Part shown: piece after piece, positions 12,297 to 37,578 of the stretch
Layout: every line of letters starts with the position of its first letter
How positions within the stretch are numbered: position 1 is the first letter of the stretch
Assembly: GCA_028355575.1 (NCBI GenBank)
Contig: JAOMSY010000001.1
Coordinates: 13,542-77,541 of the forward strand
From: Francisellaceae bacterium
GTDB lineage: Bacteria > Pseudomonadota > Gammaproteobacteria > Francisellales > Francisellaceae
Direction of reading: 5' to 3'
Length of the DNA stretch: 64,000 nt
Made by a program: the position numbers and the translations under genes
The notes under the pieces: generated by a model
The model's database searches: none
Told to the model about the DNA's origin: nothing
What the model saw: the letters and a program-made list of their open reading frames with translations, nothing else

Positions 12297-13997
12297 ATGG
12301 CGTTCGAACTAATAGATGAGAAACTGGTTTCTAAAGAGGAAAAAATAGAACTACAGAAAAAGATACCTGATTTAAAATCTTGGGACTTAACGCCAAGACA
12401 ATTGTGTGATTTAGAGCTAATTATGAATGGTGGGTTTTCACCTTTAACAGGATTTTTAAATGAAGATGATTATAACTCAGTATGTGAAGATTTAAGGCTT
12501 AAATCTGGCGAATTATGGGCGATGCCAATTACGCTAGATGTTTCAGAAGCCTTTGCTGGAAGTTTGGCTAAAAATGAAGAAATTGTTTTACGTGACCTAG
12601 AAGGCGTTCCGTTAGCAATTCTAAAAGTTGAATCGAACTGGCAGCCAGATAAAGCCAAAGAAGCTGAGTTGGTTTTTGGTAAGAATGATACTGCGCATCC
12701 AGCGGTGAGTTATTTACATAATCAAGCTGGGAGTTGGTATTTAGGTGGTGGAATACTAGGCTTAGAAATGCCTAAACATTATGATTATATTTCACATCGC
12801 CATACGCCGAATGAGCTTCGCTCCATGTTTAATAAAAATGGCTGGGATAAAATTGTCGCTTTTCAGACACGAAACCCCATGCATAGAGCGCACTATGAGC
12901 TGACATTGAGGGCAGTTAAAGATCAAAAAGCAAGCTTATTGCTTCATCCTGTGGTTGGTATGACCAAGCCAGGTGATATTGATCACTACACGCGCGTTCG
13001 TTGTTATGAGCAGATTATCAAAAAATATCCTGAGCAAACATCTGCATTAAGTTTATTACCATTAGCCATGCGTATGGGTGGACCAAGAGAAGCGTTATGG
13101 CATGCGCAGATACGTAATAATTACGGAGCAACCCATTTTATTGTAGGACGGGATCATGCTGGGCCAGGTAAAGATAGTTTAGGTGAAGATTTTTATGATC
13201 CATATGCGGCTCAAGTTCTTGTCGAGAAATACGCGGATGAGATTGGGGTTCAGGTTGTCCCATTTAAAGCTGTGGTCTATGTGGAAAATAAAGCAGAATA
13301 CCATCCAGCTGATGAAGTGGAAGAGACAGATAAGGTTTTAAATATTTCAGGCACGGAATTTAGAAGAAGGCTGCGTAATGATTTAGATATTCCTTCTTGG
13401 TTTTCATTTCCAGATGTGATTACGGAGCTAAAGAAATCATATCCAGCTAAACATAAACAGGGCTTTACAATATTTTTCACAGGGCTTTCAGGAGCTGGTA
13501 AATCAACCATTGCTAATGCGCTAATGATTAAGTTATTAGAGCATGGGGATCGACCAGTCACTTTATTAGATGGTGATATTGTGCGTAAAAATTTATCAAG
13601 TGAATTATCATTCTCTAAAGAGCACCGTGACCTGAATATTATGCGTATTGGGTATGTTGCTTCTGAGATTACTAAGCACCGTGGTATTGCTATTTGTGCG
13701 CCGATTGCGCCTTATGCTAAAACACGCCAAGCGGTACGAGGTGAAATCGAGCAATTTGGTGGCTTTATTGAGGTGCACGTTTCAACGTCATTAGAGGTTT
13801 GTGAAAGCCGTGATCGTAAGGGGTTATACGAAAAGGCTAGAAAAGGGATTATTAAGCATTTTACTGGTATTGATGATCCATATGAAGTGCCAACGCATGC
13901 GGAAATAATAGTTGATACCACTAAATTATCTGTGATGGAGTCGGTTCAACATATCCTATTAGAAATTGAAAGTATGGGTTACCTATTGGGTAATTAG
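12297..13997 (+). CDS. sat: bifunctional sulfate adenylyltransferase (ATP sulfurylase) / adenylylsulfate (APS) kinase
   Basis: N-terminal homo-oligomeric ATP sulfurylase motifs (QTRNPMHRAH at about 12864-12893, GRDHAGPG). C-terminal APS kinase with an intact P-loop GLSGAGKST (13482-13508). Confidence 0.9.
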   Translation: MAFELIDEKLVSKEEKIELQKKIPDLKSWDLTPRQLCDLELIMNGGFSPLTGFLNEDDYNSVCEDLRLKSGELWAMPITLDVSEAFAGSLAKNEEIVLRDLEGVPLAILKVESNWQPDKAKEAELVFGKNDTAHPAVSYLHNQAGSWYLGGGILGLEMPKHYDYISHRHTPNELRSMFNKNGWDKIVAFQTRNPMHRAHYELTLRAVKDQKASLLLHPVVGMTKPGDIDHYTRVRCYEQIIKKYPEQTSALSLLPLAMRMGGPREALWHAQIRNNYGATHFIVGRDHAGPGKDSLGEDFYDPYAAQVLVEKYADEIGVQVVPFKAVVYVENKAEYHPADEVEETDKVLNISGTEFRRRLRNDLDIPSWFSFPDVITELKKSYPAKHKQGFTIFFTGLSGAGKSTIANALMIKLLEHGDRPVTLLDGDIVRKNLSSELSFSKEHRDLNIMRIGYVASEITKHRGIAICAPIAPYAKTRQAVRGEIEQFGGFIEVHVSTSLEVCESRDRKGLYEKARKGIIKHFTGIDDPYEVPTHAEIIVDTTKLSVMESVQHILLEIESMGYLLGN

Positions 13998-14018
13998 ATA
14001 ACTAATAACAATAATGCC

Positions 14019-14041
14019 ATTCCGTGACTCGACCACGGAAT
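14019..14041 (+). other. intercistronic hairpin between sat/cysC and cysQ (no T-tract)
   Basis: ATTCCGTG-N7-CACGGAAT, an 8-bp perfect stem. Not followed by a U-run, so not called as a terminator. Confidence 0.3.
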
Positions 14042-14057: not shown

Positions 14058-14861
14058 ATGGATGAATGTTTGATGAAAAACTTAAACCAGCTGTTAGATG
14101 TTGCGCTTAATGCAGCTAATCATGCCTCTGAAAAAATGTTAGAAATCTATCAAAAAGATTTCTCAATTGATTACAAAGATGATAAAAGTCCATTGACTGA
14201 AGCGGATGAAGCATCCCATCAAATAATATACAACTTGTTGAAAGACTTAGGATATCCCGTTATTTCTGAAGAGTCAAAGCCAGAGGAATTGATTGATTCG
14301 ACATCACAGTCCAATCGATTCTGGTTAGTTGATCCCTTAGATGGGACAAAAGAATTTATCAAAAAGAATGGCGAGTTTACAGTCAACATTGCCTTGATTG
14401 AGAATAATCGACCGATCTTAGGTGTGGTTGCTATTCCTGCTCAAAATAAAACTTATTATGCTATTCAAGGGCAGGGTGCTTATAAGGTAAAAGGTGGTAA
14501 TGCGCAAAAAATAAACTGCTCTAAAACTGCTGATTTATCAGTTGCAACGATTGCAGTAAGTCGTTCACATTTGAAACAAGAAGATCAAGATTTTATCGCT
14601 AGAAACAATATTGCTAATACTAAGCCACTGGGCAGTGCATTAAAGTATTGTGAAATTGCTGATGGCTCAGTAGATTTATCTATTCGCTTTACGCCATTAA
14701 TGCAGTGGGATCTAGCTGCTTCTGATATTATTGTCCATGAGGCGGGTGGTGTTGTGTCTGACTTTAAAGGGTGTGGGTATCAGTATGACCCTCAAGATAG
14801 CGAAAATGCCCTAGTGGATGGCTTGATTGCAAGAAATGAGAACTTGGTTGTAAGTATTTAA
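14058..14861 (+). CDS. cysQ: 3'(2'),5'-bisphosphate nucleotidase (PAP phosphatase), inositol monophosphatase family
   Basis: ISEES...WLVDPLDGTKEF metal-binding motifs and C-terminal WDLAASD. An alternative ATG is at 14073. Confidence 0.8.
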   Translation: MDECLMKNLNQLLDVALNAANHASEKMLEIYQKDFSIDYKDDKSPLTEADEASHQIIYNLLKDLGYPVISEESKPEELIDSTSQSNRFWLVDPLDGTKEFIKKNGEFTVNIALIENNRPILGVVAIPAQNKTYYAIQGQGAYKVKGGNAQKINCSKTADLSVATIAVSRSHLKQEDQDFIARNNIANTKPLGSALKYCEIADGSVDLSIRFTPLMQWDLAASDIIVHEAGGVVSDFKGCGYQYDPQDSENALVDGLIARNENLVVSI

Positions 14862-14928
14862 TTTATGCCATACATGCAAATCACGCAGGATTATGTTTAA
14901 ATAATAATATTCTAATCACAAGGATGTG

Positions 14929-15936
14929 ATGGTGTTATTAGTTACAGGTGCAGCAGGTTTTATTGGTTTTCATCTCTGCAAAAAACGTCTTGAGCAAGGC
15001 GAGGACGTATTAGGAATTGATAATTTAAATGACTACTATGATGTTTCCCTAAAACATGCACGTTTAAATCAATTACAAAAATATTCAAATTTCACATTTG
15101 TGAAAATAGATATTTCTGACCGTGATGGCATAGCAAATCTTTTCAAAAAACACCCAATTAAGCGCGTAGTCAATTTGGCGGCACAGGCTGGTGTAAGGTA
15201 TTCAATTGAAAATCCTCATGCTTATATTGATTCGAATGTGGTTGGATTTACCAATATTATCGAAGGTTGTCGTCACCATAATGTTGAACACTTGGTTTAT
15301 GCTTCTACTAGCTCTGTGTATGGTGCCAATGAGCTACAACCATTTTCAGAAGGGAAGAGTGTCAATCATCCATTAGCAATTTATGCTGCTACAAAAAAGG
15401 CAAATGAGCTGATTGCACATTCATACTCACATTTATATGGATTGCCTACAACGGGATTGCGGTTTTTTACAGTTTATGGGCCTTGGGGTCGACCAGATAT
15501 GGCTTTATTTTTATTTGCTGATGCAATTATGAATGATAAGCCATTGAATATTTTTAACCATGGAAAAATGGTGCGTGATTTCACTTATGTTGGTGATATT
15601 GTTGAAGGTGTCTCACGAGCGATAGATAAAACCGCAGAGCCAGATCCAGTTTGGGATGCAATGAATCCTGATCCAGCGACCAGTTATGCGCCTTATCGGG
15701 TATACAATATTGGTAATAATAATCCTGTTGAATTGATGGATTATGTGCATGCGATTGAGGATTCATTAGGTAAAAAAGGACAATATAACTTTATGCCAAT
15801 GCAAGATGGTGATGTGCCATCAACTTGCGCCGATGTATCACGATTAGAGGAAAATCTTGGATATAAGCCAAAAGTTTCAGTTAAAGATGGCGTGCAGGAT
15901 TTTGTTGATTGGTATAAAAACTATTATCAAAATTAA
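14929..15936 (+). CDS. NAD-dependent nucleotide-sugar 4-epimerase (UDP-glucuronate / UDP-HexNAc-uronate 4-epimerase type)
   Basis: [11 protein letters not shown] Rossmann motif and YAATKKANE catalytic YxxxK. Overall pattern of Cap1J/LpsL/WbtF-like epimerases. AAGGA RBS lies just upstream; GTG at 14926 is an alternative start. Confidence 0.8.
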
Positions 15937-15958: not shown

Positions 15959-17113
15959 ATGAGTAATGAATATTTGTTTACATCTGAAAGTGTTTCAGAG
16001 GGTCATCCAGATAAAATAGCTGATCAGATTTCTGATGCAGTGCTTGATGCCATTATAGAGCAAGATCCAAATGCTCGAGTGGCTTGTGAAACATTGGTGA
16101 AAACAGGTATGGCATTAGTTGCAGGTGAAATAAATACTACTGCTTGGATTGATATTGAAGCGCTTGTGAGACAAGTTGTGTGTGATATTGGTTATACAGA
16201 TGCCTCTTTAGGATTTGATGGCAAGTCTTGTGCCGTATTGAATGCAATCGGTAAACAATCAACAGAGATCGCACAAGGTGTTGACCGTGAAGAGTTAATG
16301 AATCAGGGTGCAGGTGACCAAGGGTTAATGTTTGGTTTTGCAACCAATGAAACTGAAACCTATATGCCAGCAGCAATCTTCTATGCGCATAAATTAATGG
16401 CACGTCAGGCGTATTTACGTAAAAGTGGTGAGTTGGCTTGGTTAGGTCCAGATGCCAAAGCGCAAATCACCTTAAAATATGTGGATGGAGAGCCAGTTGC
16501 GGTTGATACGGTTGTTATATCGACCCAACATTCTGATTCAATACAGAACAAGGTTATTCATGAAGCAGTGATTGAGGAGATCATTAAACCCGTTCTTCCA
16601 AAAGAATTGATGCAGAATAAAGTTAAGTACCACATTAATCCAACAGGACGATTTGTGATTGGGGGGCCTGAAGGCGACTGTGGTTTAACTGGGCGTAAAA
16701 TAATAGTCGACACTTATGGTGGTGCTGCACATCATGGTGGTGGTGCATTTTCTGGTAAGGATCCCTCAAAAGTAGATCGTTCGGCTGCTTATATGGGGCG
16801 TTATGTGGCTAAGAATATTGTTGCTGCAGGTTTGGCTGACAAATGTGAGGTTCAAATTTCTTATGCAATTGGTGTGGCTGAACCAACCTCTGTTATGGTG
16901 AATACGTTTGGCACAGGTAAGATAAATGATTTTGAAATCTCAAAGGTAATTTTAAAGCATTTTGATTTAAGACCTTATGCGATTACACAGCAATTAGATC
17001 TGATTAGGCCAATTTATCAGAAGACTGCTGCATATGGTCATTTTGGTCGTGAAGATAAAGATTTTACTTGGGAAAATGTTGATAAAGCTGAGGAATTAGC
17101 TGCAGAGTTATAA
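15959..17113 (+). CDS. metK: S-adenosylmethionine synthetase
   Basis: [41 protein letters not shown] signatures. Confidence 0.97.
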
Positions 17114-17148
17114 ATATTGATAATTTGAAATTAAAATGAGAGGAAGTT

Positions 17149-18486
17149 ATGAGTACAGAGGTTATTGAAAAAAAGGTTGAGAATATGAATGTTTCTAAGG
17201 ATGTTGATTATAAGGTTGCAGATATTTCTTTGGCTGCTTGGGGTCGAAAAGAGATTAATATTGCAGAAACTGAAATGCCAGGTTTAATGGCTTTACGAGA
17301 AGAATTTGCAGAATCTCAACCTTTAAAAGGCGCTCGTATTGCAGGCTGTTTGCATATGACTATTCAGACAGCAGTTTTGATTGAGACGTTGACTGCTATA
17401 GGTGCAGAAGTACGTTGGTCAAGCTGTAATATCTTTTCAACACAAGACCACGCTGCTGCGGCAATGGCTGAAGCTGGTATTCCGGTATTTGCTTGGAAAG
17501 GTGAAACCGAAGAAGAGGCTGAATGGTGTATCCATCAAACAATAAAAGGTCCAAATGGTTGGACGCCAAATATGATTCTTGATGATGGTGGGGATTTAAC
17601 CTTAATAGCGCATAATGATTACCCTGAGCTAATGAAAGAAATTAAAGGTATTAGTGAGGAGACAACAACAGGTGTGCATCGGTTATACGAAATGGTTAAA
17701 AGTGGCAAATTGAAATGTCCTGCTATTAATGTTAATGACTCAGTTACAAAGTCTAAATTTGATAATCTTTATGGTTGCCGTGAATCATTAGTAGATGGCA
17801 TTAAACGTGCTACAGATGTCATGATAGCGGGTAAAATTGCCGTTGTGTTAGGGTATGGTGATGTCGGAAAAGGCTGTGTTCAGGCTTTAAAAGGCCTAGG
17901 TGCGACCATAATGGTGACAGAGATTGATCCTATTTGCGCATTACAGGCAGCAATGGAAGGTTTTCGCGTAGTAACAATGGATGATGCTTGTAAAGTCGGT
18001 AACATTTTTGTAACAACCACGGGTAATAAAAACGTCATTAATCATGATCATATGGCCAAGATGAAAGATCAATCTATTGTGTGTAATATTGGTCATTTTG
18101 ACAATGAAATTGATATTGCTTCAATTGAAGGATATGAGTGGGATGAGATTAAGCCCCAAGTAGATCATGTTACTTTCCCTGACGGTAAAAAGTTGATTAT
18201 TCTAGCCAAAGGTCGTTTGGTGAACTTAGGTTGTGCGACGGGACATCCAAGTTTTGTGATGTCTAATTCATTTACGAATCAGGTGATTGCACAAATTGAG
18301 TTATGGGAAAATGCACAGGATTATGAGAATAAAGTCTATATGTTGCCTAAGAAATTAGATGAGAAGGTGGCAAGTTTGCACCTTAAGAAAATCGGGGTTG
18401 ATTTAACTCAATTGACACAAGAACAGGCTGACTATATAGGTGTGCCTGTTGAGGGGCCGTATAAACCTGAGTATTATCGTTATTAG
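17149..18486 (+). CDS. ahcY: adenosylhomocysteinase
   Basis: [42 protein letters not shown] motif, C-terminal YRY. Confidence 0.97.
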
Positions 18487-18524
18487 ATTTGCTAGTATGA
18501 TTGTCTATAAGCCAAGGAAAATTC

Positions 18525-19778
18525 ATGAATAGGAAAATATCGGTTATCGGTTTAGGGTATGTTGGTTTGCCTGTTGCTGTTGCTTTTGGTCACAAGCACG
18601 AAGTGATCGCTTTCGATATCAAGCAAGATCGAATTTTAGAACTTAAATCTGGACACGATTCAACCTTAGAGGTTGATGATACTGAGCTTAGTCTGGCCAA
18701 TTTATTGCTTACTTCAAACCCAGATGACATACAAAAAGCAGATTTTCATATTGTAGCAGTCCCAACCCCTATTGATGCTGCGAATCAACCAGATTTAACA
18801 CCCTTGCTTAAGGCAAGTGAAACGATTGGTGCTCAGCTCAAGGTTGGTGATATCGTTGTTTATGAATCTACTGTCTACCCTGGTGCGACAGAGGAAGATT
18901 GTGTTCCTGTTCTGGAGAAATACTCAGGGTTGAAGAGTGGCAAAGATTTTTTTGTGGGTTATTCGCCTGAAAGAATAAATCCAGGCGATAAAGAACATAC
19001 TTTTACCAAAATTAAAAAAGTTGTTTCTGGGCAGACATCAAGCGTGTTAAATATTGTATCAGAAGTATATGCATCTGTGGTAACGGCTGGAGTATTTGAA
19101 GCAAGCTCAATTAAAGTGGCTGAAGCAGCTAAAGTGATTGAGAATTCTCAACGGGATATAAATATTGCTTTTGTAAATGAACTTTCAAGAATATTTGGAT
19201 TAATGGATATTTCAACGCACGAAGTATTGGAGGCTGCAGGCAGTAAATGGAACTTTTTACCATTTAAGCCAGGTTTAGTGGGTGGTCATTGTATTGGGGT
19301 TGATCCATATTATTTAACACATAAGGCAGAGAAGCTTGGTTATCATCCGCAGGTTATTTTAGCCGGTAGAAGAATTAATGATGGTATGGGTAAATATATT
19401 GCTGAAAAAACCATTAAGGCAATGATCGCTAATAATGTACCTATACGTGGCGCTAAGGTTGGTATATTGGGTTTTGCTTTTAAAGAAAATTGTCCTGATG
19501 TTAGAAACACAAAAGTGATTGATATTATTAACGAACTTAAAGAGTATTCAATTGGGAGTATTGTCATTGATCCAGTTGCTGATGCTTATGAGGCTAAACA
19601 TGAATACAGTATCAATCTTGCTAGAGATTATAAAAACTTAAAGGAAGTTGATGTTGTCATTGTTGCAGTAGCGCATGATGTTTTTAAAACAGATGAGTTG
19701 TCAGATTTGCTTTCCAATAAAGTGGTAGTAGTGGATGTTAAAAATTGTATGAGCTTAAATGACAGGGTTGTATTGTAA
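18525..19778 (+). CDS. UDP-N-acetylhexosamine 6-dehydrogenase (TviB/WbpO/WbtE-like nucleotide-sugar dehydrogenase)
   Basis: ISVIGLGYVGLPVAVAF Rossmann motif and catalytic GGHCIG. The ATG at 18525 gives the family-typical N-terminus; the ORF track begins at TTG 18501. Confidence 0.85.
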   Translation: MNRKISVIGLGYVGLPVAVAFGHKHEVIAFDIKQDRILELKSGHDSTLEVDDTELSLANLLLTSNPDDIQKADFHIVAVPTPIDAANQPDLTPLLKASETIGAQLKVGDIVVYESTVYPGATEEDCVPVLEKYSGLKSGKDFFVGYSPERINPGDKEHTFTKIKKVVSGQTSSVLNIVSEVYASVVTAGVFEASSIKVAEAAKVIENSQRDINIAFVNELSRIFGLMDISTHEVLEAAGSKWNFLPFKPGLVGGHCIGVDPYYLTHKAEKLGYHPQVILAGRRINDGMGKYIAEKTIKAMIANNVPIRGAKVGILGFAFKENCPDVRNTKVIDIINELKEYSIGSIVIDPVADAYEAKHEYSINLARDYKNLKEVDVVIVAVAHDVFKTDELSDLLSNKVVVVDVKNCMSLNDRVVL

Positions 19779-20800
19779 TGGCAAAGCAACAACAGAAAAA
19801 TTTTGGATTAATTGGTGCTGCTGGCTATATCGCACCTCGGCATATGCGGGCAATTAAAGACACAGGGCATAACTTATCTGTCGCCATGGATAAGTTTGAC
19901 TCTGTTGGGATATTAGATAGTTTCTTTCCAGAGGCGGATTTCTTTACAGAGTTTGAACGTTTAGAAAGGCATGTTAATAAGTTACAACATAGTGATCATA
20001 AGCTGGATTATGTTTCTATTTGTTCGCCAAACTATTTACATGATAGTCATATTCGCTTTGGTTTAAGGAATCAAATGCATGCTATTTGTGAAAAGCCATT
20101 GGCGCTAAACCCCTGGACATTAGAAGCGTTAGAACAAGTTGAAAAAGAAACTGGCTTTAATGTTTATAACGTACTACAGCTTAGGCTACACCCATCTATT
20201 ATTGCATTAAAAAAGAAGATAGAGCAGTCCCCAGAAAATAAAATATTTGATGTTGATTTGACTTACTTAACTTCGAGAGGCACTTGGTATTATACCACAT
20301 GGAAAGCAAATGATGATGAATCAGGCGGCATTGCTACGAATATAGGCGTGCACTTTTTTGATATGTTGGCTTGGATATTTGGCAAGGTTAAGGTCAATGA
20401 AGTGCATATCAGCGAAATTGACAAAGCTGCGGGTTATTTAGAATTTCAAAAAGCCAGGGTGCGGTGGTTTTTGAGTATAAATCCTGAAATGTTGCCAGCT
20501 GAAGTATTACTAAAGCAACAAAGAACCTATCGCTCCATTACCATTGACAGTAAAGCGTTAGAATTTAGTGGTGGTTTTACTGACTTACATACACAGACAT
20601 ATCAGCATATTCTTAGTGGGCAAGGTTATCGGGTGGGTGACGCTAGAACAGCCATAGAAACGGTATTTCAAGTCAGGCATCAAAAGCCAAAAGGACTGGC
20701 GGATCGATCGCATCCATTTTGTCAAAAAGCATTAAAAACACCATTTCAAGGTTTTTCTAAAGATTTGGTAGGGAAATACTTGAGAAAATTAACTCAGTGA
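19778..20800 (+). CDS. Gfo/Idh/MocA oxidoreductase, WbpB-like (UDP-GlcNAcA 3-dehydrogenase type)
   Basis: FGLIGAAGYIAPRHMRAIKDTGH N-terminus and EKPLALN motif typical of WbpB/WlbA. ATG overlaps the upstream stop (TAATG). Confidence 0.8.
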   Translation: MAKQQQKNFGLIGAAGYIAPRHMRAIKDTGHNLSVAMDKFDSVGILDSFFPEADFFTEFERLERHVNKLQHSDHKLDYVSICSPNYLHDSHIRFGLRNQMHAICEKPLALNPWTLEALEQVEKETGFNVYNVLQLRLHPSIIALKKKIEQSPENKIFDVDLTYLTSRGTWYYTTWKANDDESGGIATNIGVHFFDMLAWIFGKVKVNEVHISEIDKAAGYLEFQKARVRWFLSINPEMLPAEVLLKQQRTYRSITIDSKALEFSGGFTDLHTQTYQHILSGQGYRVGDARTAIETVFQVRHQKPKGLADRSHPFCQKALKTPFQGFSKDLVGKYLRKLTQ

Positions 20801-26531: not shown

Positions 26532-26542
26532 AAAGGTATTTG

Positions 26543-28778: not shown

Positions 28779-29966
28779 TTGAATGAAACACTAGCAGGGT
28801 TATGTGTTGGATTAATATTTTTTTCAATTAGCATTATAGTTTCTCTGGCAATATATCGTATTTTTTCAAAATGCTATTTAAGGGTATTGAGTATAATTTA
28901 TTTGAGTTGGATCGCTCATTTTATTGCCTCTTATGCGTATTCTTTAATACCTTCAGATTCATTTAATCAATTTTTCACAGAAGCAAATATAAATTACTTC
29001 TCTGTTGGCACTCAGTTTATAAAAAACTTAACCTGGTATGTTAGAGAATATGTAACAGGTGATTCCTATCTAGGGACATTATATTTTTTTTCAGTATTTG
29101 CTTTTATTGGTAGTGTGCTCTGGTTTTGTTTGTATTTGCGTATAGCTCAGTTACTTTCAGTTAGGGTTCGACAGCAAATATTTCCCGCCTTAGTAATTAT
29201 GTGTTGGCCCTCATTCTTATTTTTTACCTCAGGGATTGGCAAGGATTCATTAAGTTATTTCTTTATCCCTTTGATTTGTCTGGCTTGGTTGGAGATAATA
29301 TATATTAAACGTAATATTGCCTGTATGTGTATTATATTGCTTTTGAGTGGGTTGGTATTAACACTAATTAGACCTTACCTAGCTATGGTGTTCATGGGAG
29401 CACTGTATCTGTCAACATTTAAAGGGGTGCGTAGTTTAACTTTTTTACGCATTCTAGGAATTGTTATAATTGTTCCTATAGCTTTATTTGTTGTTCAATG
29501 GGTCTTGTCCAAGCAAGGTGGTATTCACGATATAAGTGTAACTAGTATTGCAGAACGCGCACTTGCTCAGAAAGAAAACTTAAGTAAAGGTACATCATTC
29601 CCGATATTATCTGATCAGCCAATTCTTGTTTTGTTACTATTACCATATAGCATGCTAATGAATCTGATCATGCCTCTATTTGTTTTTGCTAATAATATAA
29701 CGGGGTTAATTGCATCGTTTGAAAACTTATTTTTACTTGGTTTGATCTTTTATTTTTGGAAAAATAGAAAGATATTTAAGAATTTGTGTAGTCGCTGTCA
29801 TATGGTAAAACTGACTTTCTGTTTTTTTATTGTAGGCATGGCATTTTTAGGTTTAATCAATACTAATTTAGGTTTGGCTATGCGCCAAAAGTCCATGTAT
29901 TTGCCCGCGTTATTGGTGGTTATTATGTTAGTTTGGCAATTTAAAAAGCAAAGCAGAATAAAATGA
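28779..29966 (+). CDS. polytopic membrane protein, candidate repeat-unit polymerase (Wzy/EpsG-like)
   Basis: 395 aa with about 10 hydrophobic segments, TTG start. Lies in a locus that has Wzx and a PCP but no other polymerase candidate. Assignment rests on context only. Confidence 0.5.
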   Translation: MNETLAGLCVGLIFFSISIIVSLAIYRIFSKCYLRVLSIIYLSWIAHFIASYAYSLIPSDSFNQFFTEANINYFSVGTQFIKNLTWYVREYVTGDSYLGTLYFFSVFAFIGSVLWFCLYLRIAQLLSVRVRQQIFPALVIMCWPSFLFFTSGIGKDSLSYFFIPLICLAWLEIIYIKRNIACMCIILLLSGLVLTLIRPYLAMVFMGALYLSTFKGVRSLTFLRILGIVIIVPIALFVVQWVLSKQGGIHDISVTSIAERALAQKENLSKGTSFPILSDQPILVLLLLPYSMLMNLIMPLFVFANNITGLIASFENLFLLGLIFYFWKNRKIFKNLCSRCHMVKLTFCFFIVGMAFLGLINTNLGLAMRQKSMYLPALLVVIMLVWQFKKQSRIK

Positions 29967-31084
29967 ATATTGTTATTTTAGCAAGCTATGCGCCTTCCAT
30001 TCTAAATTTTAGAAAAGAGTTAGTTTTATCTTTAAAGAAATATGGGAAAGTTACAACTTTGGTGCCGTATGAGTCAGAAGACATGAAGCATCAAATTCAA
30101 AGTCTAGGAGTTGATTATCAGGAAATACCGCTTTCTCGGCGTGGTTTAAATCCATTAAAGGATATAAAGCTCTTAAAATTTTTAGTTAGATTCCATAAAA
30201 AAAATCAAACAGACTTAGTTATTGGTTACACGGTTAAGCCAGTTATCTATGGTTCCATTGCAGCAAAAATAGCAAAAGTGCCAAGCATTTATTCCATTAT
30301 TACTGGATTGGGGTTTGCCTTTATTGATAAATCTTCTTTAAAGCAGAAACTGATTCAGAAGCTTATTCAAAAATTATATAAAAATACGCTTAAGTATAAC
30401 CAAACTGTATTTTTTCAAAATCCAGATGATTTAAACTTATTTCGTCAATTAAAAATATTGCCTAAAACGGCCGCAACACAGTTGATTAATGGCTCAGGAG
30501 TGAATCTTGATTATTTTGAATATAAAAAGGATATCTGTTTAGCGCCAATTCGTTTTTTGATGATTGCCAGAATTATGCAGGATAAAGGTGTAGTTGAATT
30601 TATTCAAGCAGCCAAGCAGGTCAAGCAGGATTATGGTAATGTGGAATTTCATCTCGTTGGTTTTATGGATGAAAGTAATCATCATATTGAACAGTTGATT
30701 AACCAATGTGTAGAGAAAAAAATCATTAACTTCCATGGCGAATTACAGGATGTTAGGTCTATATTAGCGCAGTGTTCGGTTTATGTATTGCCATCTTATC
30801 GTGAAGGGACACCGAGGAGTGTATTAGAAGCCATGTCAACAGGACGTGCTATTATTACCACCGATGCGCCGGGGTGTCGTGAAACCGTGCAAGAAGGTCA
30901 TAATGGTTATTTGGTTCCCATAAAATATGCTAATCATTTAGCTGAAGCAATGATTAAATTAATAGAAACCCCTGACAAAATCATCGAAATGGGTAAAAAT
31001 AGTAGACAGTTAGTTGAAGAAAAATATGATGTTCATAAGGTCAACCAAGTAATATTGAAAACGATAGGTTTGTTAAATGATTAA
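29963..31084 (+). CDS. glycosyltransferase family 4 (PglA/WbpU-like, acts next to the initiating transferase)
   Basis: [18 protein letters not shown]-terminus and [24 protein letters not shown]-x7-E motif. Overlaps neighbouring genes on both sides. Confidence 0.85.
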
Positions 31085-31673
31085 ACGGTTCTTTGATATT
31101 AGTTTAAGTCTGTTTTTGCTGATTATGCTATTGCCAATAATATTCATTCTATACATCGTTATATATCTTAAATTAGGTCCTCCTGTTATTTTTAAACAAG
31201 GGCGTCCAGGTTATCGCGAAAAAATTTTTACGATCTATAAATTTAGAACCATGACGAGTGAGACAGATCAAAATGGTAATTTATTACCCGATTCAATTCG
31301 GTTGACGAAATTTGGTAAATTTTTGAGAGCATTAAGTTTAGATGAGCTACCTCAATTATTAAATGTTTTAAAAGGAGAAATGAGTTTTGTAGGACCAAGA
31401 GCATTGTTAAGAGAATATTTGCCTTTATATAATCAAGAGCAGAAAAAACGACATTTAGTCAAACCAGGCATAACAGGTTGGGCACAAATAAATGGGCGTA
31501 ATGCCATTAGTTGGGAGCAGAAATTTAAATATGATGTTTGGTACGTTGAGCATCAATCGATTTTATTAGATATGAAAATTATGTGGTTCACTTTGGTTAA
31601 AGTGATCAAAAGAAGTGATATTAATCAAGATGGTCAGGCGACAATGGAAAAATTTAAAGGTTCCCATGAGTGA
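31077..31673 (+). CDS. undecaprenyl-phosphate sugar phosphotransferase, small monotopic PglC/WbpL-class initiating enzyme
   Basis: 198 aa, a single N-terminal re-entrant helix, [25 protein letters not shown] and PGITGWAQ. Confidence 0.9.
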
Positions 31674-32274
31674 TTTATTAATTATAGGGGCTGGTGGACA
31701 TGCTAAAGTTGTTTTTGATTGTGCTTCTCAACAAGGATTATTTGGGTCTTATACAGTTGTAGACAGTGATAAGCATAAATGGGGGAAAGAATTTCTAGAT
31801 ACAGTGATTTGTACTGAAATAGATATTAATCCTGATGATTATAGTGGTTTTGTATGTGCGATTGGGCATGATCAGATTCGAAAAACACTATTTCAAAAGT
31901 ACCTGAAATTAGGTGTTACCCCGGTAAATGTGATTCATCCAAATACCTACATATCTTCATTTTGCGATTTAGGTCTTGGGATAATGATGATGAAAGGTGC
32001 GACAGTACATCCCGATGCTGAAGTGGGCGACAATGTTATTGTTAATACGCATGCGATTATTGAACACGATGTTAAGGTTGCTGATCACGTACAAATTTCA
32101 CCTGGCGCAATTATTTGTGGTAATGTATCAATCGGCAGTTTAAGTTTTGTTGGTGCCGGTGCAGTAATTAAACAAGGTGTTGCCATAGGTCAAAATTGTA
32201 TGATTGCTGCCGGAGCGGTGGTGGTAAAAGATGTACCTGATGGCCAGTTAGTTAAAGGCATCCCTGCAAAATAA
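31666..32274 (+). CDS. hexapeptide-repeat N-acetyltransferase (PglD/NeuD-like)
   Basis: [13 protein letters not shown]-terminal domain plus C-terminal left-handed beta-helix repeats. ATG 31666 overlaps the upstream stop (ATGAGTGA). Confidence 0.85.
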
Positions 32275-32372
32275 GTTTTAAACTTCTCGTGTTTGTTTCA
32301 ATATATCATTAGAGCATTTATATGATGATAATGGTATAGTAAATAGATGATGTAACGTTCGACTTTTTATAG

Positions 32373-33551
32373 ATGTCAAATAAAATAAATGTAAATACTT
32401 GGCCTTCTTTTGCAGAAGATGAGATAACTGCTGTCGATAACGTATTACGCTCTGGTAAAGTTAATTACTGGACTGGAAATGAATGTAAGTTGTTTGAAAA
32501 GGAATTTGCTCGCTATATTGGCACAAATTATGCGATTGCGTCAGCAAATGGAACGGTATCGTTAGAACTGGCTTTGTATGCCTGTGGTATCGGCCCTGGT
32601 GATGAAGTAATTACGTCTCCACGCACCTTTATTGCTTCAGCAAGTGCCATTGTTGCCAGAGGAGCGATACCTGTTCTTGCTGATGTAAACTTAATTTCTC
32701 AGAACATCACAGCGGAAACAATTCAAGCAAAAATCACCAAAAAGACCAAAGCGATTATACCCGTACACTTAGCTGGTTGGCCATGTGATATGCCAAGTAT
32801 AATGAATCTAGCAAAAGACTATGGGTTATACGTGATAGAAGATTGTGCTCAGGCACATGGTGCCTCCATTAACAATATAAAAGTTGGTGCTTGGGGAGAC
32901 TTTGGTTCCTTCTCTTTCTGTCAAGATAAAATTATGACAACGGGCGGTGAAGGTGGGTTACTAACTTGTAACAATGAACAGCTATATAAAAAGGCTTGGG
33001 GTTATAAGGAACATGGTAAAGATTACGATACTGTTTTCCTTAAGCAACATCCGCCTGGATTTAGATGGCTGCATAGCTCATTTGGTACCAATATGCGCAT
33101 GACAGAAATGCAGGCGGCTATCGGTCGAGTTCAGTTAGCTAAATTAGATAATTGGCTAGCAAAGCGTAATGCGTTGGCTGAAATATTTATTCAGAAATTA
33201 CATTATCTGACTAATATAGAAATACCTTTACCAGGTGAAAATATTTACCATGCTTATTATAAGTTTTATATATTCGTCAAGACTGGTGCATTGGGAAAAG
33301 ACTGGAGTCGAGATAGGGTTTTTCATGAAATCAACCAAAAAGGTATTTTTTGCAATGTAGGTAGTTGCTCTGAAATTTATATGGAAAAAGCATTTACGGA
33401 TAGTCCATATGCATTGTCTGAATGTTTACCTAATGCTAAGCAATTAGGTAATATAAGTTTGATGCTGTTGGTACATCCAACATTGACTGAAACAATAGTA
33501 AATGATCAAGCTGAAATTATTAGATCCGTATTGCTAGAGGCAACTAAATAA
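32373..33551 (+). CDS. DegT/DnrJ/EryC1 family PLP aminotransferase (PglE-like nucleotide-sugar 4-aminotransferase)
   Basis: Full length (392 aa) with GDFGSFSFCQDKIMTTGEGG, the PLP-lysine region. Confidence 0.9.
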   Translation: MSNKINVNTWPSFAEDEITAVDNVLRSGKVNYWTGNECKLFEKEFARYIGTNYAIASANGTVSLELALYACGIGPGDEVITSPRTFIASASAIVARGAIPVLADVNLISQNITAETIQAKITKKTKAIIPVHLAGWPCDMPSIMNLAKDYGLYVIEDCAQAHGASINNIKVGAWGDFGSFSFCQDKIMTTGGEGGLLTCNNEQLYKKAWGYKEHGKDYDTVFLKQHPPGFRWLHSSFGTNMRMTEMQAAIGRVQLAKLDNWLAKRNALAEIFIQKLHYLTNIEIPLPGENIYHAYYKFYIFVKTGALGKDWSRDRVFHEINQKGIFCNVGSCSEIYMEKAFTDSPYALSECLPNAKQLGNISLMLLVHPTLTETIVNDQAEIIRSVLLEATK

Positions 33552-33552
33552 A

Positions 33553-35391
33553 ATGATAAAGCTTTCTTCTATTAAAAGTGCTCATGCTTGGATGATCCTT
33601 GCGCTGGATTTTTTAATGGTGCAATGTGCCTGGATATTAGCAACTTCTCATTTCTTTGAGCGGTATTCGTGGCATAAAATAGACAACACAAAACTAATAT
33701 TTTTAGCCATCGCTTCCCTGCTTTCATTTAAGATTTTTAAAACTTATGCGGGTTTGTGGCGATATACTTCGACTGAGGATTTATTAGTTATTATTAAATC
33801 GGTGTTATTGACCTTATTATTGTTCCTGATAGCTAGGTTTTATTATGACAGACTGATAGATATATCGCGTGTATCGTTATTACTATTTATTTTGATGTCA
33901 ATTGCATTTATGAGTGGAGCAAGGCTGATCTCAAGAATTTATCATTTTGGGCAATATCGTATTTCGAAGTCTACAAAATACCAGAAAAATTATATTTTAA
34001 TTGGTGCGGGTTTTTCCGGTGAGCGATTTTTAAGAGAAAACTTACAACAACAAAATTCGCATATAAAGGTAGTGGCAATATTGGATGATAATGCTCAGCT
34101 TGCTGGCAAGAAGATAAAAGGGATTCCAATTATAGGGAATATTGAATTATTAGATGCCAGTGAATTGGTAAAGAAAAATGATATTCACGGGGTGATTATT
34201 GCAATTGCTCAATTGAATCGTAAAAAATTCCAAAATATATATTTATTTGCTAACAAGCTTAAGCTTGATGTCAAAACATTGCCCTCCATGGAGGAAATAC
34301 TCGCTGGTAAAATCACCATTACTAACCTGCAAGATGTTACCATTGAGGACTTGTTGGGTCGAGATCAAGTCGAGTTAGATGTTGGAAAAATTCAAAAATT
34401 AATTGACAGTAAGTGTGTTTTAGTGACTGGTGGAGGGGGGTCAATTGGCTCTGAACTTGTTAGGCAAGTAATAAAGCTAACAACACCAAAAAAACTAGTT
34501 ATTATTGATCATTCTGAGATAAATTTATATACGATTCAGCAGGATGTCAGTGGCCTAAATGCCGAAAAGTGTTATTTTCATTTGGGTAACATAGTAGATC
34601 GTAAATATATACAATCAATTTTTAAATTATATCGGCCCGATATCGTTTTTCATGCGGCAGCATATAAACATGTGCCATTGCTTGAAATGCAACCTAAGCA
34701 AGCATTTCTAAATAATGTTATCGGTACAAAAGCTCTGTGTGAAATTGCTGTGCAATCAAAGGTTTCAAAATTTATTATGGTTTCTACTGATAAGGCAGTT
34801 AACCCAAGTAATATTATGGGTTGTACTAAAAGGATTGCGGAACTAATCTGTCAGCGTTATGGGTCTAAACAAGAGCATACGCAATTTATCACCACGCGTT
34901 TTGGTAATGTATTAGGTTCTGCGGGTAGCGTCATCCCATTATTTAGAAAACAGCTTAGAAAGGGCGGGCCAATAACCGTTACTCATAAAGATATTGAGCG
35001 GTTTTTTATGACGATACCTGAGGCGTCACAACTGGTTATATACAGTGGTTGTGTCGGTAGAAATAAAGATGTTTTTGTGCTGGATATGGGTAAGCCTGTT
35101 AAGATAAGTAAATTGGCTGAGCAATTAATAAGGTTATCTGGTAAAGAGCCCTATGTTGATATTGATATTGTTTACACTGGTCTACGGCCAGGAGAGAAAA
35201 TGTATGAAGAGTTGTTCTATCAGAGTGAACATCTTTTAAAAACTGACCATAGAAAACTATTCAAGTCGCAAAATGATCATATGATTACATTGGAATCATT
35301 ATTTGGCAAGCTTGAGAAGATTCAAAATAATCTGCTTGAATTAGAAGATGAAGAAGTTAAATCACAACTATCACTATTAATAAAACATTAA
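33553..35391 (+). CDS. membrane-anchored UDP-HexNAc 4,6-dehydratase (PglF/CapD/WbpM family)
   Basis: N-terminal TM segments and two Rossmann regions (IGAGFSGE; VTGGGGSIGSEL). STDKAVNP and YxxxK-type SDR core. Confidence 0.9.
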   Translation: MIKLSSIKSAHAWMILALDFLMVQCAWILATSHFFERYSWHKIDNTKLIFLAIASLLSFKIFKTYAGLWRYTSTEDLLVIIKSVLLTLLLFLIARFYYDRLIDISRVSLLLFILMSIAFMSGARLISRIYHFGQYRISKSTKYQKNYILIGAGFSGERFLRENLQQQNSHIKVVAILDDNAQLAGKKIKGIPIIGNIELLDASELVKKNDIHGVIIAIAQLNRKKFQNIYLFANKLKLDVKTLPSMEEILAGKITITNLQDVTIEDLLGRDQVELDVGKIQKLIDSKCVLVTGGGGSIGSELVRQVIKLTTPKKLVIIDHSEINLYTIQQDVSGLNAEKCYFHLGNIVDRKYIQSIFKLYRPDIVFHAAAYKHVPLLEMQPKQAFLNNVIGTKALCEIAVQSKVSKFIMVSTDKAVNPSNIMGCTKRIAELICQRYGSKQEHTQFITTRFGNVLGSAGSVIPLFRKQLRKGGPITVTHKDIERFFMTIPEASQLVIYSGCVGRNKDVFVLDMGKPVKISKLAEQLIRLSGKEPYVDIDIVYTGLRPGEKMYEELFYQSEHLLKTDHRKLFKSQNDHMITLESLFGKLEKIQNNLLELEDEEVKSQLSLLIKH

Positions 35392-35463
35392 GGATAGTAT
35401 GACGAGAATTGTTTAATTGGTTTGGTTATTTATACTGGTCTGTAAGGGATAAATTGAGTTTGG

Positions 35464-37578
35464 ATGATGTTGGAATATCAACAAGATAACATTATTACTT
35501 TAAAGCAAATATTAAAAATAATTCTCAAATATAAATGGTTTATATGTTTTGCTGTATTTATATTTGGATTATGTGCAATTGTTTATATTAAATCCAGGCT
35601 ACCTGTATTCACTTCTAAAGTTTTAATCTCGGCGCCTTCTGAGTCACAAGCAAATCTTCTAAAATTGGATAAAAATCTAAGTCAAGTTATTAAAAAGCTT
35701 CAGTTAGATATTAAAACCAAACCCCATTATTTCCCATTCTTTGGAGAAAAAATAGCTTTAAAGTACAACCTGTCTAATTACAATAATCAACTAAGCCAGC
35801 CTTTATATGGCTTATCATCGTATGCCTGGGGTGGTGAAAAAGTTGACATAAGTTCATTTGAAGTAGGCGATGCATGGAAAGAACAATCGTTTAATTTACT
35901 CTATTTAGGTTCTGATAAATATCAAATCTTAAGTAATAATGGAAATGTTATTATTAATGGTGAGGTAGGAAAGCCACAGAGCTATAAGTTAAATAAATAT
36001 GTATTCTTAGATGTACAAATTAATGAAATTCTAGCTAGAAAAAATACTGAATTTTCTATTAAAAACATCTCTTTTTCCGAAGTAATTGATCAGCTAAAGG
36101 CACAATTATCCATAACGCCGGTTAGTAAAGGTTCTAGTAACTATTATGTGTCAATGTCAGGGCAGGACCCAAAAAAAATAGCCGCTATTTTAAATGAAGT
36201 TGTTAAAAATTTTTCTTCAGTTGAAATTAATAAAACACTGGCAATCGTTAACTCACTTAGAAGTTATTTGTATGGTTTATTGCCTGAGTTTCAAAAAAGA
36301 ATTTCCAAGGAAGAGAGTCTGTATCTAAAAGAATCAAATACTTATTATAAGTCTTTAAATACAGATGGTATAAGCGAAGAGGACCAAGTTTTATTGAATC
36401 AGCAAGAATTAATTATGTCTCAAATTAAGGAGACAGTTAATCAGATAGCTAACTTAGAGATTAACAAGTTAGTTTTGCAACAAAAAATTAAGTTATACCC
36501 AAAACAAATAAACCAATATAAGTCTGAAATGGTTAAACTTGATCAGCAGTTGCTTGAATTAAATAGCCAGCTGAGTGATCTGCAAAAGTCATTAGAAAGA
36601 CTAATGGGTAGTTATTATAACAACGAAATAGCTTATATAAGCTTAATTTCGACACAAGCGAAATATGCTTCAGTGGTTAATCAGCTTGGAATGTATGATG
36701 ATGTTGTATCAAGCGCAACGATTCCAGTTGAGTTAGTCAGCAGGGCAAAAATACCCTATAAAGGGGCTGTAAAGCCAGCTTCGCTATTAGTTCTAATAGG
36801 AGCATTGCTAGGTGGTCTGATTTTAAGCCTGTCTATCGTGTTTTTATGGGTTTACTTGCGTGGTCGGGTTGATGATGTCTTAAAAATAGAAAAACTGACT
36901 GGTTTAAACCTAATTGCAGAAGTTTCTAAACCTCAATCAAACCGCATATTTAATAGGAACAAAAATACTCTAAATAATAAGTTTAATACCACTGTTCATA
37001 GCCTTGAGAAAGTGCGAATTATAAAGTCAAACTTGCTGACATATAAACAACCTGATTCAGGTTTAATAGTCTCACTTACTGGTGTCGAGAAGAAAGTTGA
37101 TAGTGCATATATCGCTGAAAATTTGTCTTTATTATTAAGTCAGGTGTCTTCGAGTCGTATTTTGGTTATTAATAATAGCAGTCATAATGCCTTATGTAGT
37201 TCCTTCAGGGTTAATGAGAATGGGGTAAGTCTATTACAGTTGTTGAAAGAACATTTGAGCTTAGATGCTGTTGCACAGAAAACACAATACGAAAATATTA
37301 GTTATATTGGATTTGGCGATATGTCTGATGGGAGTGCTGACACAATCAATGACAGGTCTTTGAGCGAATTATATGAAAAATTATCTGCAGAATATGATTA
37401 TGTTATTATCAATAATACACCTTTATTGAATCACTCAGATGCAATTCAGTACATGCGTTATAGCCACGTAAATTTCTTGGTGGTTAAAAAAGATGCACAT
37501 ACTGATGATGATTATAATGAGCTTGTGAATATTGCTAAGGTAGCTAAGATTGAATACAATGGTTTTATAGCGATGTAA
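35464..37578 (+). CDS. polysaccharide co-polymerase, Wzc-like architecture with a degenerate C-terminal BY-kinase-like domain
   Basis: Wzz-type N-terminus with TM1, a long coiled-coil periplasmic region and TM2 (LLVLIGALLGGLILSLSIVFLWVYL). The C-terminal ~240 aa align positionally to BY-kinase but lack Walker A/A'/B and the Tyr cluster. Confidence 0.75.
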   Translation: MMLEYQQDNIITLKQILKIILKYKWFICFAVFIFGLCAIVYIKSRLPVFTSKVLISAPSESQANLLKLDKNLSQVIKKLQLDIKTKPHYFPFFGEKIALKYNLSNYNNQLSQPLYGLSSYAWGGEKVDISSFEVGDAWKEQSFNLLYLGSDKYQILSNNGNVIINGEVGKPQSYKLNKYVFLDVQINEILARKNTEFSIKNISFSEVIDQLKAQLSITPVSKGSSNYYVSMSGQDPKKIAAILNEVVKNFSSVEINKTLAIVNSLRSYLYGLLPEFQKRISKEESLYLKESNTYYKSLNTDGISEEDQVLLNQQELIMSQIKETVNQIANLEINKLVLQQKIKLYPKQINQYKSEMVKLDQQLLELNSQLSDLQKSLERLMGSYYNNEIAYISLISTQAKYASVVNQLGMYDDVVSSATIPVELVSRAKIPYKGAVKPASLLVLIGALLGGLILSLSIVFLWVYLRGRVDDVLKIEKLTGLNLIAEVSKPQSNRIFNRNKNTLNNKFNTTVHSLEKVRIIKSNLLTYKQPDSGLIVSLTGVEKKVDSAYIAENLSLLLSQVSSSRILVINNSSHNALCSSFRVNENGVSLLQLLKEHLSLDAVAQKTQYENISYIGFGDMSDGSADTINDRSLSELYEKLSAEYDYVIINNTPLLNHSDAIQYMRYSHVNFLVVKKDAHTDDDYNELVNIAKVAKIEYNGFIAM

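Follow-up and report, generated by a model that had tools for sequence, protein, structure and literature searches.

A likely sulfated Wzx/Wzy-type glycan locus beside conserved PAPS-synthesis genes in a Francisellaceae bacterium

The 64,000-nucleotide stretch of contig JAOMSY010000001.1 analysed here (hereafter the window), which belongs to assembly GCA_028355575.1 of a Francisellaceae bacterium, carries between positions 12,297 and 37,578 a block of genes that likely directs the synthesis of a sulfated glycan of the Wzx/Wzy type. The interpretation preferred here, which is held with somewhat more confidence than doubt, is that of a Wzx/Wzy-dependent, PglC-initiated O-antigen or O-antigen–capsule locus with a horizontally gained central cassette, in which two predicted cytoplasmic sulfotransferases, ST1 and ST2, would tap the 3'-phosphoadenosine 5'-phosphosulfate (PAPS) provided by genes of the chromosomal backbone. 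These are the genes of a fused ATP sulfurylase/adenosine 5'-phosphosulfate (APS) kinase, Sat/CysC, and of the CysQ nucleotidase, which are together referred to as the PAPS arm. A sulfated glycan fed by the neighbouring Sat/CysC is the likeliest reading because the sulfotransferase genes sit between glycosyltransferase and Wzx genes. The block had been described in a first-pass annotation of the same DNA, and nearly all of the gene calls made there hold in profile scans with Pfam and NCBIfam, which covered the window open reading frames (ORFs) of at least 120 aa apart from those at 59416-59832 and 61934-62302 (Table 1).

The two sulfotransferases proposed in that annotation stood up to the PF03567 profile search and to motif and fold checks, of which the fold scores are marginal, and both may be regarded as credible carbohydrate sulfotransferases. 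The 5'-phosphosulfate loop (PKxxGT/S) reads HIPKAAGTS in ST1 and HVPKAAGTS in ST2, the 3'-phosphate motif (RxPxxRxxS) reads RDPLFRLFS and RHPYDRVLS, respectively, and the predicted PAPS-binding residues H35, P37, K38, G41, R82, P84, and S90 do not vary among 51 aligned homologues. ST1 and ST2 are only 32% identical to each other and are therefore two different enzymes, not the products of a recent duplication. No PDB entry was matched by a sulfotransferase at the sequence level. The AlphaFold (AF2) model of ST1 (pLDDT 91.6, pTM 0.86) was used for a fold search, in which the two best PDB matches were heparan sulfate 6-O-sulfotransferase and sulfotransferases made up eight of the nine top matches; the best one, 5t03 (heparan sulfate 6-O-sulfotransferase), was retrieved with a probability of 1.0, but with a marginal E-value (~1e-3) and a TM-score of ~0.5. 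A hydrophobic N-terminus is absent from both proteins, which is consistent with a cytoplasmic sulfation step, at the site of PAPS synthesis, that would precede flipping by Wzx. Moreover, both genes are full length and are interleaved with the genes of Wzx and of glycosyltransferase family 4 (GT4) enzymes at gaps of 0–9 bp.

The origin of these two genes is likely to be distant. Among 5.8 billion protein clusters, the nearest homologues reached at most 48% identity for ST1 and at most 60% for ST2 (Sulfurimonas, Colwellia, Marinobacter), and none of them came from Francisellaceae. Most were marine, the named hosts for the two proteins being Alteromonas, Cobetia, Corallincola, Sulfurimonas, Colwellia, Marinobacter, and Halomonas. 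In Alteromonas infernus the ST1 homologue lies inside a Wzx/Wzy/glycosyltransferase locus, and in Cobetia marina it lies in a small GT4/GT8 cluster that has neither wzx nor wzy; PAPS genes are not found nearby in either case.

Both enzymes of the PAPS arm were recognised correctly in the first-pass annotation. Sat/CysC (MDC0534189; ST2 is MDC0534201) scores 920.2 bits against NF004040, for which the cut-off is 669, and its catalytic motifs are intact in both domains (QTRNPMHRAH, GRDHAG, GLSGAGKS, LDGDIVR). The call of a phosphatase for 3'-phosphoadenosine 5'-phosphate (PAP), the by-product of sulfation, is borne out for CysQ by TIGR01331, a narrow pass with 239.6 bits against a cut-off of 228.8, and by the metal-/substrate-binding motifs DPLDGT and WDLAA. 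The Sat/CysC sequence is 96% identical (amino acids) to its orthologue in L128, a close relative represented by JGI contig Ga0401695_00256. CysQ is only 87% identical to the L128 protein, whereas its neighbours LpdA, Sat/CysC, MetK, and AhcY reach 96–99.6%; judged from these values, CysQ evolves noticeably faster than the other backbone genes.

The remaining elements of a Wzx/Wzy pathway can be followed along the block. The characteristic trio of an initiating phosphoglycosyl transferase, Wzx, and a polysaccharide co-polymerase (PCP) is present, and the dehydratase, aminotransferase, acetyltransferase, and small phosphoglycosyl transferase of a PglFED/PglC initiation module all stand in one row. 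The PglD-like acetyltransferase reaches 214.6 bits against TIGR03570 (cut-off 160.8), and four N-terminal transmembrane (TM) segments are predicted in the PglF-like 4,6-dehydratase. The PglD/E/F-like trio is predicted to serve the synthesis of a di-N-acetyl-trideoxyhexose. PglA/C/D/E/F-like genes had been proposed and PglC, D, E, and F were recovered, but there is no PglA besides the GT4 genes, of which Pfam finds four in all and not five plus a PglA. Wzx was confirmed by its Polysacc_synt domain, while the Wzy-like protein proposed together with it remains an assignment drawn from nine predicted TM segments, with no profile match. The PCP was also confirmed, by Wzz and WZC_N; the kinase domain at its C-terminus is degenerate (Walker A GVEKKVDS, Walker B IINNTP, no Tyr-rich tail), with an AAA_31 score of 22 bits, below the cut-off of 27, and neither wza nor wzb occurs near the gene. 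The block had been called mostly co-directional; nearly all genes are indeed on the plus strand, although the minus-strand galE gene had gone unmentioned.

In the proposed mechanism, PglF, PglE, and PglD would make a sugar resembling di-N-acetylbacillosamine, which PglC would load onto undecaprenyl phosphate. The four GT4 enzymes would add N-acetylhexosamine (HexNAc) or uronic-acid sugars, supplied by GalE, by a TviB/WbpA-like dehydrogenase, and by a 4-epimerase whose gene is inserted behind cysQ. On the cytoplasmic face, ST1 and ST2 would then O-sulfate two positions of the lipid-linked unit with the use of PAPS, after which Wzx would flip the unit, the Wzy-like protein would polymerise it, and the PCP would set the chain length. 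The PAPS would come from Sat/CysC, whose gene ends 7.3 kb before the start of ST1 along a run of plus-strand genes, and CysQ would hydrolyse the PAP formed. The arm would thereby act as a standing PAPS supply of the backbone, which abuts the glycan locus by chance and is tapped by the sulfotransferases of this strain.

Several observations weigh against this interpretation. The putative Wzy has no Pfam or NCBIfam match even at E ≤ 5, its assignment being positional only. The Wza/OPX (outer-membrane polysaccharide export) protein and the WaaL ligase are absent from the scanned ORFs of the 64-kb window and may be encoded elsewhere, and a sulfate permease or transporter (SulP, CysPTWA) is likewise absent from the window. 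The numbers of sites predicted by promoter and terminator scans did not exceed those for shuffled sequence, and the scans are therefore uninformative on operon structure and on whether the arm is co-transcribed with the glycan genes. Finally, the sulfation of the glycan is a prediction from gene content. Since neither Wza/OPX nor WaaL is encoded in the window, an O-antigen and a capsule are both possible products. Kps export genes are also absent from the window, the export gene here being of the Wzx type, and no ops/JUMPstart element (GGCGGTAG) was found in it. Ahead of the block, a terminator of the pyruvate dehydrogenase (PDH) genes had been proposed. A hairpin with a T-run does follow lpdA and is a plausible PDH terminator, but the consensus terminator scanner made no call at about 12090-12120.

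The block had been treated as one locus, and this view did not survive the comparison of orthologous loci, which had been suggested as a check and was carried out here. Comparison with L128 by blastn, over the upstream half of that contig from aceF through the full-length aminotransferase gene, indicates that the block is a mosaic and no single co-evolved unit. In L128 the order is aceF, lpdA, sat/cysC, cysQ, metK, ahcY, a sugar dehydrogenase, WbpB, a hexapeptide acetyltransferase, a PIN toxin module, and a 360-aa aminotransferase. The order PDH-sat-cysQ-metK-ahcY is thus kept, and two partial contigs agree with it: L045 has lpdA, sat/cysC, and cysQ in a row, and L001 has sat/cysC, cysQ, and metK in a row with no epimerase. 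The nucleotide identity between the window and L128 is 92.5% from aceF to cysQ and 89.4% in metK-ahcY; directly after ahcY it is 69% in the dehydrogenase gene and 79% in wbpB. The per-gene GC content drops from 0.38 to 0.32 exactly at the start of ST1 and stays at 0.29–0.345 from ST1 through PglC, against 0.37–0.41 in the backbone. These data indicate that the PDH genes, sat/cysC, cysQ, metK, and ahcY are conserved chromosomal backbone of the lineage, and that only a low-GC segment at about 21.3–31.7 kb is a variable cassette. It follows that the sulfotransferases came with a foreign, strain-specific cassette, whereas the PAPS arm already belonged to the backbone. The foreign origin is indicated by the low GC content from the ST1 start onward together with the fact that the nearest homologues all come from outside Francisellaceae. 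No mobile-element genes flank the cassette. At 59416-60748 the minus strand carries a small ORF followed by an IS3-family transposase gene (rve, HTH_21), some 22 kb beyond the downstream end of the glycan locus.

The segment between ahcY and the cassette shows a history of its own. The UDP-HexNAc dehydrogenase named in the first-pass annotation is borne out by its Pfam domains and by the NDP-sugar dehydrogenase subfamily model, which it passes, while its score against the TviB model is 524 bits, below the cut-off of 592. Its amino-acid identity to the L128 protein is 68%, compared with 96–99% in the backbone. The adjoining oxidoreductase was rightly called WbpB-like, given its match to PDB 3oa2, and it is 85% identical (amino acids) to the L128 orthologue. 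The next ORF is a chimera and no working gene, with its first ~50 codons from a wbpD-like acetyltransferase gene and its last ~125 codons from a wbpE-like aminotransferase gene. Residues 6–56 resemble the start of the L128 acetyltransferase and residues 48–171 the end of the L128 aminotransferase; the ORF matches only positions 213–344 of the 360 in the Pfam DegT profile and aligns to residues 221–345 of the 359 in WbpE (3nu7). Judged against L128, a deletion of ~1.7 kb disabled the WbpA/B/D/E route. A working WbpA/B/E route to a 3-amino uronic acid was ruled out, since the deletion removed the 5' two-thirds of wbpE together with the greater part of wbpD. WbpB is probably stranded, because its partner genes wbpD and wbpE are gone. 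By accession count, the chimeric ORF is annotated as a protein, MDC0534196, in the source record. The corresponding wbp row of L128 is itself broken by toxin–antitoxin-like modules at 11507-12098 (a 72-aa ORF and a PIN protein) and 13200-14496 (an HTH/HATPase_c_4 protein, an NTP_transf_2 protein, and a 157-aa ORF), and the PIN module falls inside the segment deleted in the window strain.

Two further elements lie between the PAPS arm and the dehydrogenase gene. The identities of metK and ahcY, which had been listed among the parts of the system, were confirmed, but the genes are not components of it. Their role as working parts of the glycan system, for example in methylation, was ruled out because the locus encodes no methyltransferase and because the two genes also adjoin each other in 73 of 80 metagenome loci from unrelated taxa. 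AhcY proved too conserved an anchor for the metagenome scan in question, which returned mainly ~80%-identity matches in unrelated taxa. The other element, directly after cysQ, is a nucleotide-sugar 4-epimerase of the short-chain dehydrogenase/reductase (SDR) family, which had been called a uronate 4-epimerase. The SDR epimerase assignment was confirmed, and the UDP-GlcA 4-epimerase of B. cereus (6zla, 173 bits) is among its best PDB matches, next to the Klebsiella protein 5u4q (480 bits); WbgU and WbpP gave about 125–130 bits. Its substrate is probably a UDP-uronate or UDP-HexNAcA. The gene is an indel: window positions 14767-15953 correspond to L128:5422-5709, where 288 bp replaces the gene, and in both L001 and L128 only a spacer of ~200–290 bp separates cysQ from metK. 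Since the closest solved homologue is the Klebsiella protein, acquisition of the epimerase from outside the family is suggested.

The question of what the PAPS arm serves was approached through its neighbourhoods in relatives, which were ranked by the identity of Sat/CysC (after L128 with 96%, L001 92%, L042 87%, L045 83%, L044 75%, L043 71%, L047 70%, L046 69%); most matches of the contig search with Sat/CysC as the query were at or below 68% identity, with no useful synteny among them. Among the competing explanations, the one that survives best, though we consider it somewhat unlikely, is that the adjacency is coincidental. Sat/CysC and CysQ would then chiefly feed cysteine synthesis, with cysH and cysIJ encoded elsewhere, and the sulfotransferases would draw on the general PAPS pool, presumably as in Alteromonas. 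L046 supplies a model for this, as the same type of fused enzyme follows cysJ-cysI-cysH there in one operon, with cysK, cysE, cysG, and a LysR regulator close by. The CysH of L046 contains a single cysteine, in ECGLH, and lacks the iron-sulfur motif, and by this motif criterion we take it to be a PAPS-type reductase. The position of the arm in the backbone, clustered with sulfur and one-carbon housekeeping genes, and the A. infernus and C. marina loci, in which ST1 homologues do without PAPS genes nearby, agree with such a role. However, the profile scans found no cysH, cysIJ, cysDN, cysK, or cysE in the window, as the first-pass annotation had said of cysH, cysIJ, cysDN, and cysteine synthase. 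In addition, it is cysQ and never cysH that directly follows sat/cysC in the relatives of at least 83% identity (L001, L042, L045, L128), and L128 keeps the arm next to a glycan locus.

A second explanation takes the whole 25 kb as one co-selected system, in which sat/cysC-cysQ would provide the donor and the detoxification solely for ST1 and ST2 in an organism with no reductive assimilation. It is favoured by the lack of cysH, cysIJ, and cysK in the 64 kb, by the fact that the sulfotransferases require PAPS and Sat/CysC is the one source of it in sight, and by gene spacing: from sat/cysC to the third GT4 gene the plus-strand genes are tightly packed (overlaps of at most 64 bp and one gap of 189 bp before the second GT4 gene), no intergenic terminator was detected, and the strain-specific epimerase gene is inserted directly after cysQ. 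Distant relatives also place sat/cysC beside sulfotransferase or glycan genes, which counts for the preferred reading as well: it adjoins glycosyltransferases, a sugar dehydrogenase, and a Sulfotransfer_2 protein in L044, adjoins a Sulfotransfer_1 protein in L043, and lies inside a Wzm/Wzt O-antigen locus in L047. Nevertheless, we regard the explanation as unlikely. The arm is backbone common to the relatives, whereas the sulfotransferases are strain-specific, and the near-universal housekeeping pair metK-ahcY separates the two. The sat/cysC-cysQ pair of L042 is located away from glycan loci, among ftsL, a penicillin-binding protein gene, moxR, and gatCAB, and in L046 a cysJIH operon includes this type of fused enzyme. 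A search with a hidden Markov model built from the sulfotransferase alignment detected a Sulfotransfer_2 ORF in only 1 of the ~40 sat/cysC loci examined. The description of the arm as the locus's own, dedicated donor supply is for these reasons unproven (the arm is backbone, metK-ahcY intervenes, and the contexts in L042 and L046 differ), and its exclusive dedication to sulfation is doubtful.

Physiological evidence from Francisella points in both directions. F. tularensis has no functional sulfate assimilation (PMC2629122), which favours the one-system explanation, but F. philomiragia retains this ability (PMC3532336). Because of the latter, family-wide cysteine auxotrophy was dropped as proof of a dedicated arm. 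That the lineage lost reductive assimilation like F. tularensis, and that the Sat/CysC-CysQ remnant was kept solely to make PAPS for glycan sulfation, is by our estimate improbable. The weakest alternative, which appears very unlikely, is that ST1 and ST2 act on another acceptor (lipid A/core, a protein, or some small molecule) or have become inactive, as relics comparable to the wbpD'-'wbpE scar, since the decay seen in the locus (the chimeric ORF, the stranded WbpB, the degenerate PCP kinase domain) and the C. marina homologue in a cluster without wzx or wzy are set against two full-length proteins with every invariant PAPS-binding residue, their tight interleaving with GT4 and Wzx genes, and homologues in Wzx/Wzy loci of A. 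infernus.

Some of the neighbourhoods are of interest in themselves. In L043:10001-14574, Sat/CysC is followed by a 301-aa ORF of unknown function and by Sulfotransfer_1, PqqD-like, and Peptidase_C92 proteins, which may be a cluster for the sulfation of peptides or of ribosomally synthesised and post-translationally modified peptides (RiPPs) with its own PAPS synthase. In L027 and L028 (Candidatus Saccharibacteria), sat/cysC-cysQ stands among genes of a UDP-sugar dehydrogenase, an epimerase, and a PglC-like transferase, and neither locus yielded a Sulfotransfer_2 ORF. Saccharibacteria have a very reduced metabolism, and the arrangement hints that PAPS is made there for glycan sulfation. In L042:2836-4787 the tryptophan synthase genes are in fragments (PALP 232, 65, and 105 aa; Trp_syntA 93 and 165 aa), as a result of either gene decay or assembly frameshift errors.

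Table 1. Features of the block and of its upstream boundary, in window coordinates, with the main supporting evidence.
Feature	Coordinates	Strand	Evidence and remarks
PDH terminator candidate	about 12090..12120	+	Hairpin and T-run 3' of lpdA, AAAGGCTGTA...TACAGCCTTTT, by direct reading
Sat/CysC, fused ATP sulfurylase/APS kinase (PAPS synthase)	12297..13997	+	Pfam PUA_2, ATP-sulfurylase, APS_kinase; conserved backbone
CysQ, 3'(2'),5'-bisphosphate nucleotidase (PAP removal)	14058..14861	+	Inositol_P 185 bits; conserved backbone
SDR nucleotide-sugar 4-epimerase	14926..15936	+	Pfam Epimerase; strain-specific insertion
metK-ahcY housekeeping pair	15959..18486	+	Pfam; embedded in the block, outside the glycan system
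TviB/WbpA-like UDP-HexNAc 6-dehydrogenase	18501..19778	+	Pfam UDPG_MGDP_dh N, central, and C domains; opens the divergent glycan region
WbpB-type UDP-GlcNAcA 3-dehydrogenase	19778..20800	+	PDB 3oa2 (WbpB) 353 bits
wbpD'-'wbpE chimeric ORF, 171 aa	20797..21312	+	Partial DegT match; scar of ~1.7-kb deletion
ST1, soluble Sulfotransfer_2 carbohydrate sulfotransferase (predicted)	21314..21991	+	PF03567 66.0 bits (cut-off 22); first cassette gene
GT4 glycosyltransferase a	21992..23149	+	Pfam Glycos_transf_1, Glyco_transf_4
Wzx flippase	23142..24587	+	Pfam Polysacc_synt 56.5 bits; 11 predicted TM segments
GT4 glycosyltransferase b	24777..25847	+	Pfam Glycos_transf_1 44 bits
ST2, second Sulfotransfer_2 enzyme (predicted)	25857..26531	+	PF03567 56.9 bits (cut-off 22)
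GT4 glycosyltransferase c	26540..27640	+	Pfam Glycos_transf_1, Glyco_transf_4
GalE-family UDP-hexose/HexNAc 4-epimerase	27668..28657	-	TIGR01179 412.8 bits (cut-off 262.3); sole minus-strand gene in the block
Putative Wzy polymerase, 395 aa	28779..29966	+	9 predicted TM segments; position between Wzx/GT genes and PCP
GT4 glycosyltransferase d (PglA-like position)	29963..31084	+	Pfam Glyco_trans_1_4 112 bits; no equivalog model passes
PglC-type small phosphoglycosyl transferase, 198 aa	31077..31673	+	Bac_transf 215 bits; one predicted TM segment; initiation on undecaprenyl phosphate
PglD-, PglE-, and PglF-like trio	31615..35391	+	PglD_N and Hexapep; DegT 323 bits; Polysacc_synt_2 376 bits
PCP-2-like co-polymerase, 704 aa	35464..37578	+	Pfam Wzz, WZC_N; Wzc-like architecture

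The remaining genes of the window include glnA, a major facilitator superfamily transporter gene, asd, lysC, thrB, thrC, def, recCBD, the IS3-type transposase gene, and genes of two-component systems. An 850-aa ORF at the left edge (5-2557) has no Pfam match, even at E ≤ 5.

The association of PAPS-synthesis genes with sulfotransferases is known from other bacteria. In the rhizobial NodPQ/NodH and LpsS systems and in RaxPQ/RaxST of Xanthomonas, a specific sulfotransferase draws on PAPS-synthesis genes that are dedicated or duplicated. These systems differ from the locus described here in their acceptors, which are Nod factor, lipopolysaccharide, or peptide, in their CysDN/CysC-type enzymes, and in having no Wzx/Wzy repeat-unit locus. 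For synechan, a pathway of the Wzx/Wzy type with sulfotransferases inside the cluster has reportedly been proposed. Synechan (xss cluster, Synechocystis PCC 6803, 2021) is a sulfated extracellular polysaccharide, in whose description sulfotransferases, wzx, and the gene cluster are discussed (PMC8205485); it differs from the case described here in being a cyanobacterial product. The layout of the window locus had been presented as not a described paradigm. This is contradicted by two reports from marine bacteria (PMC11641403; PMC11766843), with synechan as a further precedent for a sulfated extracellular polysaccharide that involves sulfotransferases and wzx.

In Vibrio sp. KMM 8419 (2024), second copies of cysC, cysN, and cysD occur with three sulfotransferases in a locus for the capsular polysaccharide (CPS) and O-antigen, and the authors consider the co-occurrence of PAPS genes and sulfotransferases a hallmark of sulfated polysaccharide synthesis (PMC11641403). 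As in the window, PAPS genes and sulfotransferases are found in one locus, and wzx adjoins a carbohydrate sulfotransferase in its O-antigen part. The Vibrio PAPS genes are explicit second copies, cysQ is not reported there, export of the CPS relies on an ABC transporter, and no wzy was found. The capsule cluster of Cobetia marina KMM 1449 (2025) contains cysN/C, cysD, cysQ, a sulfate permease, a sulfotransferase, glycosyltransferases, and Kps export genes (PMC11766843), and thus resembles the window in uniting PAPS synthesis, cysQ, a sulfotransferase, glycosyltransferases, and export genes in one region. It differs in its use of cysD and cysN/C where the window has the fused Sat/CysC, in its sulfate permease, which the window lacks, and in its export through a Kps ABC transporter with priming by 3-deoxy-D-manno-oct-2-ulosonic acid (Kdo) in place of Wzx/Wzy. 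Moreover, its PAPS genes are located between kps operons; those of the window stand apart from the variable region, with metK-ahcY in between. The sulfated polysaccharides of both clusters, which are CPS, have been chemically proven (PMC11641403; PMC11766843). The Cobetia cluster is bounded by pyruvate dehydrogenase, as is the block described here, which is probably a coincidence (PMC11766843). The layout has thus already been reported in marine Vibrio and Cobetia, and the window provides a new example, not a new principle. The features that distinguish it from the precedents are the fused Sat/CysC, the Wzx/Wzy pathway with PglFED/PglC initiation, the position of the arm in the backbone, and the host family.

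Within Francisellaceae, the repeat unit of the F. tularensis O-antigen and capsule is GalNAcAN-GalNAcAN-QuiNAc-Qui4NFm and is unsulfated (PMC2897883). A unit of this kind, built from HexNAc uronic acid, 2-acetamido-2,6-dideoxyhexose, and 4-amino-4,6-dideoxyhexose, fits the dehydrogenase, epimerase, and PglF/E-type genes of the window, a likeness in the type of sugar. In Francisella (wbt), one repeat unit can serve both as O-antigen and as capsule. The literature search returned no paper that links Francisellaceae with sulfate on a glycan or with a sulfotransferase.

Summarizing, if the preferred reading is true, neither a sulfated envelope polysaccharide nor a sulfotransferase would have been reported before from Francisellaceae, to which a major pathogen with an O-antigen targeted by vaccines belongs. 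A case with Wzx/Wzy and a fused Sat/CysC would also join the few clusters (Vibrio, Cobetia, Synechocystis) that are mined for sulfated polysaccharides and sulfotransferases, a gain that is incremental because the principle has already been published. If, in turn, the arm is the remnant of a lost assimilation pathway, the organism might carry a polyanionic coat resembling host glycosaminoglycans. The comparison with L128 shows how such a trait may originate, with a foreign sulfotransferase cassette landing beside PAPS genes that already existed in the backbone.

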